Assembly: GCA_037189525.1 (NCBI GenBank)
Contig: JBBCJC010000005.1
Location: 480,001 to 544,000 of the forward strand
Reading direction: 5' to 3'
DNA from: Gemmatimonadales bacterium
GTDB lineage: Bacteria; Gemmatimonadota; Gemmatimonadetes; Gemmatimonadales; GWC2-71-9
DNA: 64,000 nt
In this document: in pieces, positions 19,244 to 54,072 of the stretch
Numbering within the stretch: position 1 is the stretch's first letter
Layout: the number at the start of each line of letters is the position of its first letter
Position numbers and translations under genes: made by a program
The notes under the pieces: generated by a model
Seen by the model: only the letters and a program-made list of their open reading frames with translations
Database searches by the model: none
Told to the model about the DNA's origin: nothing

Positions 19244-20338
19244 TTAGCGGGACGGTCGCTCGACCGAACCCGGAGGAGCGGCTCGCAAGTACTGCGCGGG
19301 CCACGGCACATCGAGGCCGAGTTCGGCTGCCGCGCGAAGCGGCCAGTAGGGATCACGTAACAGTTGCCGCGCCAGCAGTACCAGATCGGCTTGCCCCGTC
19401 CGGATGACATGATCGGCCTGCGCCGGCGCCGTCAGCAGCCCCACAGCCCCGGTACGGACGTTGGCTTCGCGACGGATCCGCTCGGAGAGACCGGTCTGAT
19501 AGCCGGGCCCGATCGGAATCCGGACCCCGCTGACATTCCCGCCCGACGAACAGTCGATCAGATCCACCCCCTGTTCGACCAGGATCCGCGACAGCCGAAC
19601 CGAATCGTCCAGCGTCCAGCCTCCCTCGACCCATTCCGTCGCCGAGATCCGTACGAAGAGCGGTAAGTGCTCGGGCCAGTGGCGGCGGACTTCCATCACC
19701 ACGTCGCCCAGCAATCGAATCCGGTTTTCGAAGCTCCCGCCGTACTCGTCGGTCCGCTGATTGCTGACGGGCGAGAGAAACTCGTGCAGCAGGTACCCGT
19801 GGGCCGCGTGAATCTCGACGACTTCGAACCCCGCTTGGCGCGCACGGCGAGCGGCCGCGCCGAACCCGAGCACCACGTTCCGGAGGCCGGCCAGATCGAG
19901 AGCTTCCGGCCTCGGATAGGTATCGCTGAACGCAACGGCACTCGGCCCCACCACCTGCCAGCCGTCGCGATCGGGCGGCACCGTTCCCTGCACCGGATGC
20001 CAGGGGCGATAGGTACTGGCCTTCCGGCCGGCATGCGCCAGCTGCACACCCGGCACCGCGCCCTGCTGCTTGATGAAGGCCGTAACCCGGGCGAGAAAGG
20101 GCACGTGTTCGTCGTCCCAGATTCCCAGGTCTTCCGGACTGATACGCCCCTCGGGCAACACGGCCGCCGCCTCGGTCAGCACCAGCCCCGCGCCGCCCAC
20201 GGCTCGGCTGCCGAGATGCACCAGATGCCAGTCGTTGGCAAATCCGTTCTCACTCGAATATTGACACATCGGAGACACCACGATGCGATTGGGCAGGGTC
20301 ACCCCGCGAATCGCGAGCGGTTCGAACAGGCTCGTCAT
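19244..20338 (-). CDS. NADH:flavin oxidoreductase (Old Yellow Enzyme, YqjM/NamA type)
   Basis: NRIVVSPMCQYS, QLAHAGRKAS, EIHAAHGYLLHEFLSP, YGGSFENRIR. Confidence 0.95.
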   Translation of the reverse strand: MTSLFEPLAIRGVTLPNRIVVSPMCQYSSENGFANDWHLVHLGSRAVGGAGLVLTEAAAVLPEGRISPEDLGIWDDEHVPFLARVTAFIKQQGAVPGVQLAHAGRKASTYRPWHPVQGTVPPDRDGWQVVGPSAVAFSDTYPRPEALDLAGLRNVVLGFGAAARRARQAGFEVVEIHAAHGYLLHEFLSPVSNQRTDEYGGSFENRIRLLGDVVMEVRRHWPEHLPLFVRISATEWVEGGWTLDDSVRLSRILVEQGVDLIDCSSGGNVSGVRIPIGPGYQTGLSERIRREANVRTGAVGLLTAPAQADHVIRTGQADLVLLARQLLRDPYWPLRAAAELGLDVPWPAQYLRAAPPGSVERPSR

Positions 20339-20416
20339 GGTATTGCAGTTGGTTGGGACGACGTTAGGCACATCGGGGCGGCCTGCCGCGCTGCGACGCC
20401 GGCTCCACCCCGATGG

Positions 20417-21466
20417 TCAGGCACCACCCCCGACGGGGGTCGAACTCAATCGACCGATGACCTGGTCGGCAAAGCGTTCCATCTCTTCTGCCTGCGGGCT
20501 GAATTGTAATAGCAGAAGGTCGACCCCGGCGGCCTCGAATGCCGCAATCCGATCGGCGACCTGTGCCGGCGTACCGACCAGGCCTGCCCGCAATCCCCGA
20601 TTGGACACCGAGTACTCCTCGAGGGACACCTGGCGCTCGAGCCGGGTATTGGCCACCCAGTCGCGATAGTTCCCGTAGCCAGGCGATCCCGGCGCCACGT
20701 TGGTAATCCGTTCCAACTCGCGCGCCGCCTCCTGCTCGGAATCCCGGACGATGACGAAGGCCGCCATCCCGAACGAAAGGGGCGGGAGACCCGTCGCGTC
20801 CCTGAGCGCCGAAAGCTCATCGATCCGCGCCGAGATAACGTCGAGGGGATCGCCGTGCATGACGTAGGCATCGCACTGCCGGCTGATCAATTGCTTCGCC
20901 GCCGGCGACTCGCCGCCCGCGTAGATCGGCGGCCGCGGACGGCGCACCGGTTTGGGTTCGAGAATGGTCTGGTCGACCTGATAGTAGGCCCCATCGAAGG
21001 AGAACTCCGGCTCCCGCCACACGCCGTCGACGACCGAAAGCCACTCGGCGGTGCGCGCGTACCGGTCGTCGTGCTGATCGAAGCGCACGCCGTATCGCCT
21101 CGCTTCGTCGGCCCACCAGGAGGAGACGACGTTGAGGGCCAGCCGGCCGCCCGCAATCCGATCGATCGCTGCCGCCTGCTTGGCAAGGATCGCCGGCTGA
21201 TGAAAGGTCGGCCGCACCGCGACCATCAGTTCGAGGCGCCGGGTCACCGCGGCCAGCGCCGCGGCCGTCGACCACGCATCCAGCGACGGCGCGGTGATCC
21301 CCTTGATGTCATTGAGGAACAACTCGGCGATCAGAGTCAGGTCGTAGCCGATCTCTTCACTTCGGCGCGCCAGGCGGCTGACGTATTCCCACGACGGATC
21401 CATCCCCTCATCCGGAACGTTGCGCAACCACCCGCCGAACACCGGAAGCCAGTACCCGAAGCGCAT
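20417..21466 (-). CDS. LLM-class flavin-dependent monooxygenase (SfnG/SsuD-like)
   Basis: MRFGYWLPVFGG, LDAWSTAAALAAVT, GRLALNVVSSW, YAGGESPA, LVGTPAQVADRI. Confidence 0.9.
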   Translation of the reverse strand: MRFGYWLPVFGGWLRNVPDEGMDPSWEYVSRLARRSEEIGYDLTLIAELFLNDIKGITAPSLDAWSTAAALAAVTRRLELMVAVRPTFHQPAILAKQAAAIDRIAGGRLALNVVSSWWADEARRYGVRFDQHDDRYARTAEWLSVVDGVWREPEFSFDGAYYQVDQTILEPKPVRRPRPPIYAGGESPAAKQLISRQCDAYVMHGDPLDVISARIDELSALRDATGLPPLSFGMAAFVIVRDSEQEAARELERITNVAPGSPGYGNYRDWVANTRLERQVSLEEYSVSNRGLRAGLVGTPAQVADRIAAFEAAGVDLLLLQFSPQAEEMERFADQVIGRLSSTPVGGGA

Positions 21467-21468
21467 CG

Positions 21469-22455
21469 TCAGGTGCTCGCCGGGGTCACCAACCCGGCCC
21501 GGACTTCGATGTAGTCCACGAAGCGGGCAAACGGATCGAACCCGATCACATTCGGCGCATCCGCCACGAAGTTCGACAGCGCATTGATGTCGTAGAAGTA
21601 GTGCCGGCCGTCGCGCTCATCGATCAGATACTCGATCCCGCCGATGTCGAGCCGAACGTGACGGGCAATCTGCTCGACCTGGGCCACGATCTCCGCCGGC
21701 GGATCGGCCCGTTCGACCCGCATCCCGGTCTTGGGCGCGTCTGCTGCGCAGAAGGTGCGATCCAGCGTCCGCCCTTCGGTCGTCTGGCAGATGTCGGCCG
21801 GACAGAGATTGAACGACTCGCCGGTCGGATACACGTTGATGGCGTAGAGGAACTTGCCGTCGAGCACTTCGACTCGAGTGATCCGGCTGCCCGACAACGG
21901 CGCCAGTTCCTGGACCAATGCCGTTTGATCCAAGCCGAGATCAATCCGCCCGGCCGCCGCCGCCTCGACCAACTGGTCTTCGGTATCGAAACGGACGATT
22001 CCGGCGCCGCTGCCGCCGATATTGGCTTTGACGACGACCGGATACCGGAGTTGTCGAGCCGCCGACGCGGCGCGCGACGCATGATTGATCACCAAGGCGC
22101 GCGGCACCGGCAGACCCAACTCCGCCAGGACCTCGACCTGGAAGGCCTTCGAGATCTCGAGCGCATAGACCGCCGAGCCGTTGACGATCGGCGTGCCGGT
22201 GCGTTCGACGTGGCGAAGCCAGTTGAGGGTATGGAACGTGGTCTGGCCATGGCCACGCAGATAGGCGGAGGGACTGTTGCGATTGACGACCAGGGAGTAG
22301 CGGCGCGTCAGATCAGCCGGATCGTACTCGTGGGCTGCCGCATCGAGCGCCACCCATGGAATCCCCCGCCGATCGAGTTCCGCAAAGAGTGGCTTGAACC
22401 AGTCCGGATGCTCATGGTATACGGCAACGGGAAGCGTCCCCGATGGAACCGACAT
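21469..22455 (-). CDS. ATP-grasp ligase (RimK / glutathione-synthetase-like)
   Basis: YPVVVKANIGGSGAGI, LVQE, GGIEY, YDINALSNF. Confidence 0.88.
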   Translation of the reverse strand: MSVPSGTLPVAVYHEHPDWFKPLFAELDRRGIPWVALDAAAHEYDPADLTRRYSLVVNRNSPSAYLRGHGQTTFHTLNWLRHVERTGTPIVNGSAVYALEISKAFQVEVLAELGLPVPRALVINHASRAASAARQLRYPVVVKANIGGSGAGIVRFDTEDQLVEAAAAGRIDLGLDQTALVQELAPLSGSRITRVEVLDGKFLYAINVYPTGESFNLCPADICQTTEGRTLDRTFCAADAPKTGMRVERADPPAEIVAQVEQIARHVRLDIGGIEYLIDERDGRHYFYDINALSNFVADAPNVIGFDPFARFVDYIEVRAGLVTPAST

Positions 22456-22513
22456 AAACCTGCCTCGATTGTTGGATTTGAGAACGACAGACTACGACGA
22501 CGTCAGGGACGCC

Positions 22514-22612
22514 TTAGCGACAACAACAACAGCCCTGGTGGCCCGACCCGACGAGGCGGGAGGCGCACCCAGGGAGTACAGCGGGGGTGATGGAGCGGCG
22601 TACAACCAGCAT
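22514..22612 (-). CDS. Leaderless polycysteine leader peptide MLVVRRSITPAVLPGCASRLVGSGHQGCCCCR
   Basis: 32-aa ORF ending TGT-TGT-TGT-TGT-CGC-TAA. ATG is 6 nt after the -10 box; the stop is 58 nt before the ATP-grasp start. Confidence 0.8.
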   Translation of the reverse strand: MLVVRRSITPAVLPGCASRLVGSGHQGCCCCR

Positions 22613-22618
22613 TCACGG

Positions 22619-22647
22619 ACTCTAAGCGACCGCCCGACCGGGGTCAA
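22619..22647 (-). promoter_or_regulatory. sigma70 promoter producing a leaderless transcript
   Basis: TTGACC-17 nt-TAGAGT-6 nt-ATG. Confidence 0.75.
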
Positions 22648-22719
22648 CCGACGGTCGCTCCGTCCAAGGACCGGATCTGCCACCAGATCGCGGTCCCTAT
22701 TTCACTGGAAACGAACGGC

Positions 22720-23319
22720 TCAGCCGCGCCAGGTCACTTTGTCATCGAGCGGGCGCCGAACGACATCCGGAGGAACACTGCCCGGATGGCCAAGGATAAA
22801 AAAGCCGAGTGGTCTGGAGGGCGCGGGCACTCCGACGAACTCCGCAACATGCGGCAGCACAGCCTGCGCACCCGTCGACCACTGCCCGGCCAGGCCGAGC
22901 GCCGTCGCGGCCAGGTGGAGATTCTGGACCGCGCCGCCAAAGGCGAGGAGCTCTTCCCATTCCGGCATCGCGAACGACCCGTCGGGCTTGAGGCCCGGCT
23001 TGAGCGTGAGCGCGATCCAGACCGGCACTTTCCACACCTTGTCTCGGCTGGTCTCGAAGGCCTCCTGCGTGAAATTCCCCCGCGCTTCGGCCTGGATCCG
23101 GTAGGCTTCGCCAAAGGCTTCACCCAGCGCCCGCCGTCCCTCACCGGTGAAGACGGTGAAGTGCCAGGGCTCGGTCTTGCCGTGGCTGGGCGCCCACCGG
23201 GCGGCCTCGAGCACCTGCTCGATCAACGAGGGGTCGACCGGGTCGGGCTTGAGAAAGGGCATCTTGTGGCTGCGACGGGCTCGCATCAGAGCAAGCAGGT
23301 CGGCTGCGTCGATTGCCAT
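22720..23319 (-). CDS. Nitroreductase family protein (YdjA-like)
   Basis: RRSH, ARWAPSHGKTEPWHF, AVQNLHLAATALGLAGQWST. Confidence 0.9.
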   Translation of the reverse strand: MAIDAADLLALMRARRSHKMPFLKPDPVDPSLIEQVLEAARWAPSHGKTEPWHFTVFTGEGRRALGEAFGEAYRIQAEARGNFTQEAFETSRDKVWKVPVWIALTLKPGLKPDGSFAMPEWEELLAFGGAVQNLHLAATALGLAGQWSTGAQAVLPHVAEFVGVPAPSRPLGFFILGHPGSVPPDVVRRPLDDKVTWRG

Positions 23320-23557
23320 ATCGCTCTACGAATTGATGTTGAAAACCTGGTTTCGTCCGCACGCAGGCGAACATACGAAACGCAAACCTAACGGCCACGC
23401 GATGCGGGACCAATCAGATGGATTCCCGTGACCGCATCTGTCCTGATCCCGTCACGGCGGCCCCTCCGAAAGTCAATTCGCTCAAGTACGTCAATCCATT
23501 GCATTTCAATGGTTTAAGAACGCAGACATCAGGTAATTTCGAACCTCGGGCGGCCAA

Positions 23558-53741: not shown

Positions 53742-53775
53742 AACGAAAACGGCCCACCCGTGAACGGGTGGGCCG
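53742..53775 (-). terminator. Intrinsic terminator in the leader of the dsbD-N/tlpA/tRNA-Cys unit (attenuator)
   Basis: CGGCCCACCCG-ttca-CGGGTGGGCCG-TTTTCGTT. No long gene upstream on this strand (the neighbour is divergent). Confidence 0.82.
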
Positions 53776-53819: not shown

Positions 53820-53891
53820 CTATAGCCGCGCGCCGCCCCACCCGTTTCCGAGGGGACAACAACAGACAGCCTGAGCGCGGACCAGCGACAT
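53820..53891 (-). CDS. Polycysteine attenuation leader peptide MSLVRAQAVCCCPLGNGWGGARL (alternative in-frame ATG at 53942)
   Basis: TGT-TGT-TGT run, GGAG RBS; contains AACGGGTGGG, complementary to the terminator 5' arm. Confidence 0.78.
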   Translation of the reverse strand: MSLVRAQAVCCCPLGNGWGGARL

Positions 53892-54072
53892 GGATGATGC
53901 TCCGAACGTAAATGAACTCACGTCGGACAATAATCGGGACATGACGAACTTGTAAAGTGCGCCCCGGACACCCCGCCGTGACGGACAACACCTCGCGGAG
54001 AATCGGGTCGCGACGATAACTTGATGGATCCAACCGCCCCATCACTCCACATCACCTCTGCGAGCCGCGACG

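Follow-up and report, generated by a model that had tools for sequence, protein, structure and literature searches.

The leader of an ATP-grasp/monooxygenase operon in a Gemmatimonadota bacterium is most likely a cysteine-sensing leader of a known kind, and what is new here is its terminator-less form in this phylum. It is located in a window of 64,000 nt, which is the whole stretch of DNA that was analysed, and all elements of the leader and the operon reside on the minus strand. The succession of promoter, short open reading frame (sORF) and structural genes suggests that the ribosome reads a leaderless transcript as a cysteine sensor, and that this sensor likely controls the ATP-grasp/monooxygenase/OYE operon downstream.

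The -35 hexamer TTGACC (22642..22647) and the -10 hexamer TAGAGT (22619..22624) are separated by 17 nt and followed after 6 nt by the ATG of the sORF (22612-22610), exactly as given in the preliminary description. This is the sole promoter-like match in the region 21400-23400 (shuffle mean 0.2), and its -35 hexamer is invariant in all three genomes with this form of the leader. The promoter geometry places the putative transcription start at or near 22612. The leader ORF MLVVRRSITPAVLPGCASRLVGSGHQGCCCCR* (22514..22612, stop included) comprises 32 codons and ends, as had also been described, in GCCCCR; four consecutive TGT codons (28-31; 22520..22531), two codons ahead of the stop, represent the putative stall site. 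Cysteine occupies 5 of the 32 codons, versus 0.68% genome-wide, and TGT is the rarer cysteine codon with a share of 21% (both from 1931 long ORFs). The only tRNA-Cys anticodon found in the genome is GCA, so that TGT is read by wobble; in 20 related leaders the ratio of TGT to TGC is 63 to 37. Leaderless-like sORFs amount to 1145 in the genome, 41 of them with CC, and among the sORFs listed the window's is the only one with CCCC. The poly-Cys ORF is not a product of chance. The search for other leaderless poly-Cys sORFs that might make up a “Cys regulon” of the genome returned only one further credible candidate, located within the same window, from a list that is noisy because the crude coding filter (GC3) took out few entries.

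The first structural gene (21469..22455) encodes a RimK-like ATP-grasp protein, for which only generic, weak ATP-grasp matches were obtained. The adjacent gene (20417..21466; PF00296, 2e-62) encodes a luciferase-like flavin monooxygenase that falls into the sulfonate/sulfone monooxygenase group; its profile scores of 249 bits (SfnG model) and 172 bits (SsuD model) are both below the cut-off, and its PDB matches are 3rao (421 bits), the “alkanesulfonate monooxygenase” 8vw6 (355 bits) and the dimethylsulfone monooxygenase 8t0u (183 bits). Profile matches identify the downstream gene (19244..20371) as an OYE-family NADH:flavin oxidoreductase (NamA-like), which is part of this operon in the window's clade only (genomes L001-L003). 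The ATP-grasp/sulfonate-monooxygenase operon is distributed over at least five phyla. The operon with its ATP-grasp, sulfonate-monooxygenase-like and OYE genes probably serves to scavenge organic sulfur; a literature search for ATP-grasp together with SfnG retrieved nothing related.

The comparison with orthologous operons supports a sensor. A Cys-containing short ORF is located 5' of the ATP-grasp gene at 14 of 15 loci from relatives. The orthologous leaders exhibit leaderless promoter geometry and Cys/Met-rich mini-ORFs, and the richness in Cys and Met is the sole common feature of their peptides. Each of the 12 genus-level leaders read by eye has a TAnnnT 6-8 nt ahead of its sORF ATG (L014 with the variant CATAAT). 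For nine leaders of genus and family level, RNAalifold predicts a hairpin that takes in the last Cys codons, along with a terminator helix of 10 pairs and a T-run behind it. The wider survey covered 80 further loci of the orthologous operon, including 39 from Gemmatimonadota and 18 from Acidobacteriota, and scored sense-strand sORFs with at least three Cys in 12 residues, with the antisense strand as control. Such Cys-rich sORFs are present at 12 of the 39 gemmatimonadotal loci (antisense 2/39) and at 11 of the 18 acidobacterial loci (antisense 0/18), and a terminator-like hairpin accompanies every one of these 23. At seven other Gemmatimonadota loci the same place harbors an RF00521 match of the SAM-II type together with a terminator (30.3-36.3 bits; the gathering score of 36 is reached by one of the seven), and a search of 12 loci with Cys leaders gave no Rfam match at E values up to 1. 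The sORF is missing from all ten Planctomycetota loci that keep the ATP-grasp/monooxygenase pair. The occurrence of Cys leaders and SAM-II-like elements on the same operon is indicative of sulfur-amino-acid control by three interchangeable devices, and the comparative data make a Cys-sensing leader peptide very likely.

The window's leader agrees with the orthologous terminator-type leaders in the operon, in the promoter-to-ATG geometry and in a TGT-rich Cys run that is followed by CGC (Arg). In the latter, however, the Cys run lies in the middle of the peptide, constitutes the 5' arm of the hairpin and is succeeded by a GC-rich terminator with a T-run, whereas in the window 27 codons and a hairpin (H1) precede the Cys run, the stop follows two codons on, and there is no terminator. 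With respect to classical attenuation of the trp/his type, the leader ORF is enriched in the codons of the regulating amino acid, here Cys; an intrinsic terminator and a competing antiterminator are absent here and present in the orthologous leaders. The preliminary description had seen no U-tailed hairpin ahead of the ATP-grasp gene, and the scan bears this out with 0 terminator-like sites in 21400-23400 (shuffle mean 1.4). Inspection by eye likewise detected none in the spacer (22456..22513), which separates the ATP-grasp ATG from the sORF stop by 58 nt and contains the sequence CAACAA (22470-22475) and the Shine-Dalgarno (SD) motif GAGG (22463-22466) 7 nt 5' of that ATG. Gemmatimonadetes are included in a table of anti-SD types in the accessible part of PMC10783764.

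Two hairpins flank the Cys tract. H1 (22533..22574; CCCUGG...CCAGGG, inner CCCG-N6-CGGG) lies within the sORF, belongs to the centroid structure of all three genomes and ends 1 nt 5' of the Cys tract. H1 and the U-rich Cys tract were considered as the missing intrinsic terminator; the stem is irregular and was not called by the terminator scan, and this reading was set aside because the termination decision would precede the reading of any of codons 28-31. In front of CUGUUGUUGUUGU, H1 might also be taken for a weak terminator or a pause site, with the decision falling ahead of the Cys codons, and a role of H1 in pausing is possible. The second and small hairpin, H2 (GGCGUC-CCU-GACGUC; 22499..22513), is located directly 3' of the stop codon and emerges from local prediction for the window and for L003; one-sided changes between L001 and L003 keep its pairing (G.U to A-U; U-A to U.G). 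The dominant full-length folds of the three genomes are three different structures, and the whole leader is less stable than its shuffles (z = +2.15, +1.90 and +0.50).

The following mechanism would be compatible with this organization. The leaderless transcript would start at or adjoining the ATG at 22612 and encode the 32-codon peptide with UGU codons 28-31. When Cys-tRNA is scarce, the ribosome would park on the UGU run, and its footprint would extend from the 3' arm of H1 across the Cys tract and the stop codon into the beginning of the spacer. With cysteine in plentiful supply, the ribosome would terminate and depart, leaving behind a naked, pyrimidine-rich and unusually unstructured leader. 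The vacated leader would be exposed to Rho or, where the U-rich Cys tract lies single-stranded next to H1, to an endonuclease, and their access would bring transcription or the life of the mRNA to an early end; a parked ribosome would block both, and the operon would be expressed at cysteine shortage. H1 may act as a pause hairpin at which the leaderless ribosome catches up with the polymerase. The window's leader would accordingly be a derived, terminator-less variant of a family that elsewhere employs classical terminator/antiterminator attenuation. Taken as a whole, this explanation appears fairly likely to us, and the cysteine sensor in itself likely. As the output step, shielding from Rho or RNase is our preference with chances that, both agents added up, fall somewhat short of even, and we rank it above an occlusion of the translation start, to which we give lower chances.

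Rho is encoded in the genome (TIGR00767, 688.7 bits, over the cut-off). The first 78 nt of the leader have a C/G ratio of 1.48 (93.5th percentile of genome windows) and contain 21 YC dimers (98th percentile), and this C-rich, rut-like part lies within the translated sORF. The 58-nt spacer is not C-rich (C16, G15; C/G percentiles 25-64); since it leads to a good SD (GAGG) and AUG, ribosomes that load there would counteract Rho. The shielding logic favored here is that of the Escherichia coli tna operon, where a ribosome held near the stop of the tnaC leader ORF blocks the access of Rho. TnaC senses free tryptophan via the nascent peptide, not tRNA charging, and the tnaC spacer comprises about 200 nt. 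In the window, by contrast, the spacer measures 58 nt and the rut site is only a candidate. A more far-reaching reading, which we regard as doubtful in its entirety, is that of a third output mode: a structure-poor leaderless leader in which a UGU-parked ribosome beside the stop might shield from Rho or an endonuclease, with ribosome and polymerase synchronized by the pause hairpin just upstream, as replacement of an ancestral intrinsic-terminator attenuator and exchangeable in evolution for a SAM-II riboswitch of that operon.

The strongest competitor is translational attenuation in the style of Ms5788A or erm/cat, which we consider rather unlikely. Here, a structure starting right behind the sORF stop would occlude the ATP-grasp gene's SD and AUG, and a ribosome parked on the Cys codons would melt its base and open the start, with the downstream genes following by polarity. 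The Cys run adjoins the stop, as in terminator-less actinobacterial leaders (PMC1262725 and 10.1101/834739, in their accessible parts). For the window's sequence from the stop codon to +40, a long hairpin (22432..22514) is predicted, with 12 bp between AGGCGUCCCUGA (22503-22514) and UCGGGGACGCUU (22432-22443); the latter corresponds to ATP-grasp codons 5-8, so that the hairpin encloses SD and AUG. With -31.1 kcal/mol (z -2.14; 7 of 200 shuffles as stable) it dominates the window's full-length ensemble (12.46 expected bp), and its 5' arm begins at the stop codon, where a ribosome stalled on codons 28-31 could reach it. This significant SD/AUG hairpin of the window alone favors the translational variant for the window's own genome. 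The long helix is, however, not predicted in the sister genomes L002 (z +0.44) and L003 (z +1.20), and the three genomes show three folds. Masking the footprint of the stalled ribosome does not improve the accessibility of the SD in any of the three, as the probability of an unpaired GAGG declines from 0.37 to 0.28, from 0.29 to 0.23 and from 0.19 to 0.00. Moreover, whole leaders are no more stable than shuffles, and the two pairings proposed in the preliminary description are at chance level, as detailed below.

The sensor reading has also to be weighed against the improbable scenario of a decaying remnant, in which the clade would have lost its terminator, the operon would be constitutive and the sORF would persist for want of time. 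The form is indeed rare: a DNA search of 401 family genomes recovered full-length leader matches in three, the window's own among them, and the 25 other matches are 22-61 nt long, GC-rich and without a Cys sORF nearby. The metagenome scan with an 18-nt pattern produced 60 loci, in which the leader match extends to 18-35 nt around the pattern at most. A conserved switchable structure was not found in the three genomes, which would also suit a remnant. The pattern of conservation in L001-L003 argues against it. Invariant columns number 35/48 in the promoter, 16/19 in the Cys tract with the stop and 33/43 in H1 (three sequences, without compensatory changes to score), versus 59/162 at 4-fold sites in the ATP-grasp gene; the values for the spacer and the RBS block are 19/38 and 17/23. 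Pairwise leader identity amounts to 166-176 of 221-222 positions, versus 0.49-0.57 at 4-fold sites. The reading frame into the Cys codons is held in L002 and L003 through 3-nt indels, and a TGT-to-TGC change in L003 is synonymous, thus retaining the Cys. The variable columns of the sORF are spread over the codon positions without bias (7, 9 and 8 of 31 each), which fits a regulatory ORF and not a functional peptide.

The preliminary description had left the choice between translational, SD-sequestering control and Rho-dependent control, and had pointed to two pairings at the RBS, one between CCCGCCTCG of the leader and CGAGGCAGG at the RBS (complementary at 8 of 9 positions) and one between TGTTG of the Cys codons and CAACA. 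The complementary letters are present in both cases, but a sequestration of the SD by them is not supported. When the sORF was simulated 5000 times with a Markov model, an 8/9 match to that 9-mer arose with P = 0.068, and one to any 9-mer of the 30-nt RBS zone with P = 0.127; the helix lies outside the predicted ensembles (0.00 expected base pairs in each of the three genomes), and an uncompensated C-to-G change in its middle reduces it in L002 to 7/9, split into short runs. The duplex energy of Cys tract and RBS is matched or surpassed by shuffled RBS regions in 0.34-0.63 of cases, and the Cys tract is expected to form 0.00, 6.52 and 1.21 base pairs with the CAACAA region in the three genomes. 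Both pairings were hence rejected as being at chance level and not conserved in a leader that is under-structured as a whole. The proposed anti-SD, CCCGCCUCG (22552-22560), is held in H1 together with the conserved Cys codon 16; as it is locked there, its release by a ribosome that stalls at the Cys tract would lead to repression, not induction. An inverse switch of this kind, in which the stall would open H1, release CCCGCCUCG for pairing with CGAGGCAGG and turn translation off at Cys shortage, is very unlikely: the 8/9 complementarity exists in L001 and L003, and in L003 the SD is fully paired with CCCGCCUCG once the footprint is masked (probability unpaired 0.00), but the helix is interrupted in L002, does not exceed chance, and would switch in the direction contrary to the terminator-type leaders and SAM-II elements of the orthologous operon.

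Finally, a functional sORF product, either a Cys-rich RiPP precursor processed by the ATP-grasp ligase and the flavoenzymes or a small peptide with metal or redox activity, is hardly credible: the small ORF is situated immediately 5' of an ATP-grasp enzyme gene with weak matches to peptide maturases (TIGR04187, 28.1 bits; TIGR04184, 23.2 bits), but these fall far short of the cut-offs (350 and 475) and do not surpass the matches to many other ATP-grasp families, the peptide lacks Asp, Glu and Lys for ATP-grasp cross-linking, and the hallmarks of graspetides, a conserved precursor core with acceptor and donor residues (Thr/Ser/Lys with Asp/Glu) and an ATP-grasp enzyme of a maturase family, were not found, while the absent codon-position bias, orthologous peptides alike only in their Cys/Met richness, the riboswitch in place of the sORF at seven loci and its absence from the ten planctomycetotal gene pairs all speak against a product.

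Among known systems, the preliminary description had pointed to the mycobacterial polycysteine leaderless sORF attenuators. This match stands with respect to the leaderless geometry, the C-terminal poly-Cys, the lack of an intrinsic terminator and the sulfur-related operon downstream; it does not extend to a stable leader duplex or a convincing pairing of Cys tract and SD, and the host belongs to Gemmatimonadota. According to the accessible text of Canestrari et al. (10.1101/834739), who described Ms5788A, Rv2334A and a “Cys ribulon”, ribosome stalling at the Cys codons is the presumed signal there as well, and their feature of at least two consecutive Cys codons upstream of a sulfur-linked operon is found here (CCCCR*). 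The leader of Ms5788A forms an “exceptionally stable” duplex (10.1101/834739, same text), and a comparable duplex, in which the Cys tract would pair with the next gene's SD region, was not found in the window. Further differences are the ATP-grasp/LLM/OYE operon and the conserved hairpin directly 5' of the Cys tract; the main text of 10.1101/834739, as far as accessible, contains neither “grasp” nor “monooxygenase”, and we claim likeness without sequence homology.

The actinobacterial cys/cbs leader peptides reported by Seliverstov et al. (2005; PMC1262725, accessible part) similarly possess Cys codon runs near the stop and no conserved terminator hairpin. Their mechanism was left unknown, and a Rho-dependent, tna-like control with the E. 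coli operon cited as model was proposed, which is considered here too; they differ in preceding cysteine biosynthesis genes of Mycobacterium, P. acnes and B. longum. The uORFC-8-2 motif 5' of cysS in Rhodobacterales (Brewer et al. 2021; PMC8632094, accessible part) is likewise a uORF with tandem Cys codons that has been interpreted as a ribosome-mediated attenuator. In contrast to the window's leader, it has an intrinsic terminator, is not called leaderless in that part, controls the cysteinyl-tRNA synthetase and prefers UGC over UGU.

Our literature search found no paper on Cys leader-peptide control in Gemmatimonadota. To our knowledge, cysteine-sensing leader peptides have been tested in mycobacteria alone, and we know of no study of leaderless initiation in Gemmatimonadota, for which the present leaders provide support at the sequence level. 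The leaders with and without terminator form a natural pair in which to ask how the signal of a stalled ribosome is relayed if both the terminator and a stable SD-sequestering duplex are absent. As this locus illustrates, related bacteria can couple one and the same operon to the supply of sulfur amino acids through three different RNA devices, and the widespread ATP-grasp/monooxygenase pair is thereby flagged as part of the metabolism of sulfur starvation, which offers a handle on its function.

The minus strand upstream of the ATP-grasp gene (22455-21469) carries, by direct reading of 22900-22200, a -35 hexamer TTGACC (22647-22642), a 17-nt spacing, a -10 hexamer TAGAGT (22624-22619) and, 6 nt further on, the ATG (22612-22610) of a short leader ORF (sORF; 22612-22514, minus strand) that encodes MLVVRRSITPAVLPGCASRLVGSGHQGCCCCR before its stop and whose codons 28-31 are all TGT. 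This arrangement with its four TGT codons had been proposed in the preliminary description, together with the absence of an intrinsic terminator upstream of the ATP-grasp gene. Both are borne out: a consensus scan of 21400-23400 retrieved TTGACC/TAGAGT as the single promoter-like site (shuffle mean 0.2) and no terminator-like site (shuffle mean 1.4). The sORF stop is followed by a 58-nt spacer, in which GAGG lies 7 nt before the ATG of the 328-aa ATP-grasp gene. Across 1931 long ORFs of the window's genome, 21% of the Cys codons are TGT, and the three tRNA-Cys genes all have the anticodon GCA; in 20 related leaders TGT outnumbers TGC by 63 to 37. This preference fits selection for a wobble-read codon or for U-richness.

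Downstream of the sORF follow, on the same strand, the genes for the ATP-grasp protein, a luciferase-like monooxygenase and an OYE/NamA-type flavin oxidoreductase. The ATP-grasp protein is RimK-like and has weak and generic family matches only. The top NCBIfam models for the monooxygenase are SfnG dimethylsulfone monooxygenase (249 bits) and alkanesulfonate monooxygenase (172 bits), both under the family cut-offs; its top solved relatives are 3rao (421 bits), 8vw6, named an alkanesulfonate monooxygenase (355 bits), and SfnG 8t0u (183 bits). In a wider scan of 80 loci from six phyla (labels taken from record titles), the ATP-grasp gene is located directly 5' of the monooxygenase gene in 73 cases, and the flavin oxidoreductase belongs to the operon in the window's clade only. 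The pair of ATP-grasp and SfnG/SsuD-like monooxygenase genes (loci L031-L110) is conserved without an assigned pathway and occurs in Gemmatimonadota, Acidobacteriota, Planctomycetota, Armatimonadota, Bacteroidota and one Methylomirabilota-labelled MAG. A nitroreductase-family gene (22720-23319, minus strand) directly upstream of the promoter is found in the window only; the sister genomes L002 and L003 have another neighbor, so the leader and the operon move together as one unit.

When 41 related genomes were searched at the protein level for ATP-grasp orthologues, 14 clear loci and one at 35% identity were obtained; in 14 of these 15, a short ORF containing two or more Cys codons lies no more than 320 nt upstream. 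The architecture of the window's leader is shared with L002 (93% protein identity) and L003 (91%). At the other loci the Cys run is placed mid-peptide, e.g. MAMCCCCRPMSSGDG, and followed by a GC-rich hairpin and a T-run. For nine leaders of this type RNAalifold predicts a hairpin with the last Cys codons in its 5' arm and a 10-pair terminator helix preceding the T-run; inspection of this result by eye indicates that the segment between them is able to base-pair with the 5' arm of the terminator. This predicted arrangement is that of a classical attenuator. In each of the 12 genus-level leaders a TAnnnT motif (CATAAT in one), identified by eye, ends 6-8 nt 5' of the sORF ATG and leaves no room for an SD, so the leaderless geometry is conserved despite sequence divergence.

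The 80-locus scan, in which L031 and the same-genus L007 of the 41-genome search represent one and the same contig stretch, extends this distribution. For loci whose upstream sequence spans 250 nt or more, a sense-strand sORF with at least three Cys in 12 residues was present in 12 of 39 Gemmatimonadota (antisense control 2/39), 11 of 18 Acidobacteriota (0/18), none of 10 Planctomycetota (3/10) and two of seven Armatimonadota (0/7). All 23 sense sORFs of Gemmatimonadota and Acidobacteriota are accompanied by a terminator-like hairpin; terminators and promoters of the relatives were in part assigned by visual inspection or by means of a rough script. Met and Cys codons are interleaved in many leaders (L053, L056, L061, L046, L045, L096 and L103, 260-300 nt upstream), as in VMCTMCMCQLMW, MCRCYMCTCLMC and MCMCMCCC, and this alternation suggests that the two sulfur amino acids are sensed jointly. 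Seven further Gemmatimonadota loci harbor, in place of the sORF and ahead of a terminator, a match to the SAM-II-type riboswitch RF00521, a family described for Alphaproteobacteria: L033 (2370-2444), L043 (1056-1127), L051 (2358-2429), L054 (2359-2433), L058 (1230-1302), L060 (2317-2390) and L064 (821-894). Their scores range from 30.3 to 36.3 bits, and L043 alone reaches the gathering score of 36. Two other variants were seen: in L035 (= L010) a terminator hairpin comes very soon after the promoter TTGACC-17-TAGGTT, about 70-110 nt before the gene, and no sORF separates the two, and L042 (2310-2440) has a short ORF without Cys and a strong hairpin lacking a T-run.

By sequence, one operon is thus tied to sulfur-amino-acid supply by three putative devices, which is a strong argument for reading the window's sORF as a sensor and against a chance ORF or a peptide product. 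Taken together, we consider it quite probable from these comparisons that the sORF is a functional cysteine-sensing leader.

A second leaderless-looking sORF of the window (53820-53921, minus strand; TTTACA-18-TATTGT-5-GTG, product VSSFTFGASSMSLVRAQAVCCCPLGNGWGGARL) has three Cys codons in a row, and behind it lies a terminator at about 53745-53775, seen as a clear GC hairpin with a T-run. Downstream are a DsbD_N-domain gene and an AhpC/TSA-redoxin gene (53807-53205 and 53514-51979), and this sORF is possibly a Cys-sensing attenuator of periplasmic thiol-disulfide genes.

The terminator-less form was found in three sequences in all, those of the window, L002 and L003, and 401 family genomes and a metagenome scan gave no further copy. 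Their pairwise identity is 75-80% over 221-222 aligned leader columns, compared with 49-57% at the 4-fold degenerate sites of the ATP-grasp gene that served as yardstick, of which 59 of 162 (0.36) are invariant in all three. Invariant columns number 35 of 48 in the promoter, 23 of 38 in the 5' part of the sORF, 33 of 43 in the hairpin H1 (22574-22533), which ends 1 nt before the Cys tract, 16 of 19 in the Cys tract with the stop, 19 of 38 in the spacer and 17 of 23 in the RBS block. The sORF frame is kept through 3-nt indels, and L003 shows a synonymous TGT-to-TGC change. The variable sORF columns are distributed evenly over codon positions 1, 2 and 3 (7, 9 and 8, each of 31), a constraint therefore unlike that of an ordinary protein.

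How a stalled ribosome would be read out was assessed from structural statements that are all thermodynamic predictions. Provided that the leader is functional, we give somewhat less than an even chance to shielding from Rho or RNase: once the ribosome has terminated and departed, a C-rich unstructured leader would be laid open, whereas a ribosome parked on the Cys codons would block Rho's path. The parked ribosome would in addition protect the single-stranded, U-rich Cys tract next to H1 from possible cleavage. H1 might act as a pause hairpin that synchronizes the leaderless ribosome with the polymerase. Rho is encoded in the window's genome (688.7 bits), and the first 78 nt of the leader are C-rich (C/G 1.48, 93.5th percentile; YC dimers 98th percentile). 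Arguments against shielding come from the spacer, which at 58 nt is short, is not C-rich and precedes a good SD.

Occlusion of the start site, a translational attenuator of the right polarity, appears rather unlikely. In the window's RNA the stretch that starts at the sORF stop codon and reaches position +40 of the ATP-grasp gene is predicted to form a long hairpin (12 pairs, 22514-22503/22443-22432) that encloses SD and AUG, has an MFE of -31.1 kcal/mol (z -2.14; 7 of 200 shuffles fold as well) and dominates the full-length ensemble; a ribosome held on codons 28-31 could reach its 5' arm. However, it is not predicted in the sister genomes (z +0.44 and +1.20), the dominant folds of the three genomes are three different ones, and H1, the best-conserved element after the Cys tract, would have no role in a simple SD-occlusion model.

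Sequestration of the SD by two complementarities, as formerly suggested, fared worse. The letters are correct (CCCGCCTCG matches CGAGGCAGG at 8 of 9 positions, and TGTTG matches CAACA), but such pairing is at chance level: an 8/9 complement has P=0.068, or P=0.127 when every 9-mer in the RBS zone is allowed as a partner, and the duplex energy of the Cys tract is no better than with a shuffled RBS region. The anti-SD helix amounts to 0.00 expected base pairs in each of the three ensembles, Cys-tract pairing to 0.00, 6.52 and 1.21 across the genomes, and a central position of the anti-SD is altered in L002 without compensation. Since the anti-SD lies inside H1, ribosome stalling on the Cys codons would release it and cause repression upon starvation, a polarity opposite to that of the terminator-type and SAM-II versions. 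With the footprint of a stalled ribosome masked, the SD became no more accessible in any of the three leaders. The full leaders are predicted to be less stable, or no more stable, than dinucleotide shuffles (z +2.15, +1.90 and +0.50 in the three genomes, where 198, 197 and 139 of 200 shuffles, respectively, were equally or more stable). The remaining weight falls on a remnant, an inverse switch, a peptide product or something unseen.

The Cys leader peptide as such is of a known kind. Terminator-less Cys leader peptides near the stop codon were predicted for Actinobacteria in 2005, with Rho suggested (PMC1262725), a translational action was shown in M. smegmatis (10.1101/834739), and Rhodobacterales have a Cys uORF with a terminator ahead of cysS (PMC8632094). 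A literature search found nothing on leader-peptide attenuation in Gemmatimonads, and one on leaderlessness in them gave, judged by title or the start of the abstract, nothing on the present subject. The M. smegmatis study describes for the leaderless polycysteine attenuator Ms5788A an exceptionally stable duplex that pairs the Cys tract with the SD (10.1101/834739); in contrast, the window's leader is predicted to be less stable than its shuffles, and that pairing is unsupported. Particular to the present case are the phylum, Gemmatimonadota as opposed to the mycobacteria, the operon, the fact that one operon is served by three alternative regulatory solutions, and, in the tests run, a conserved terminator-less form whose predicted behavior agrees with neither the Ms5788A mechanism nor the classical one.
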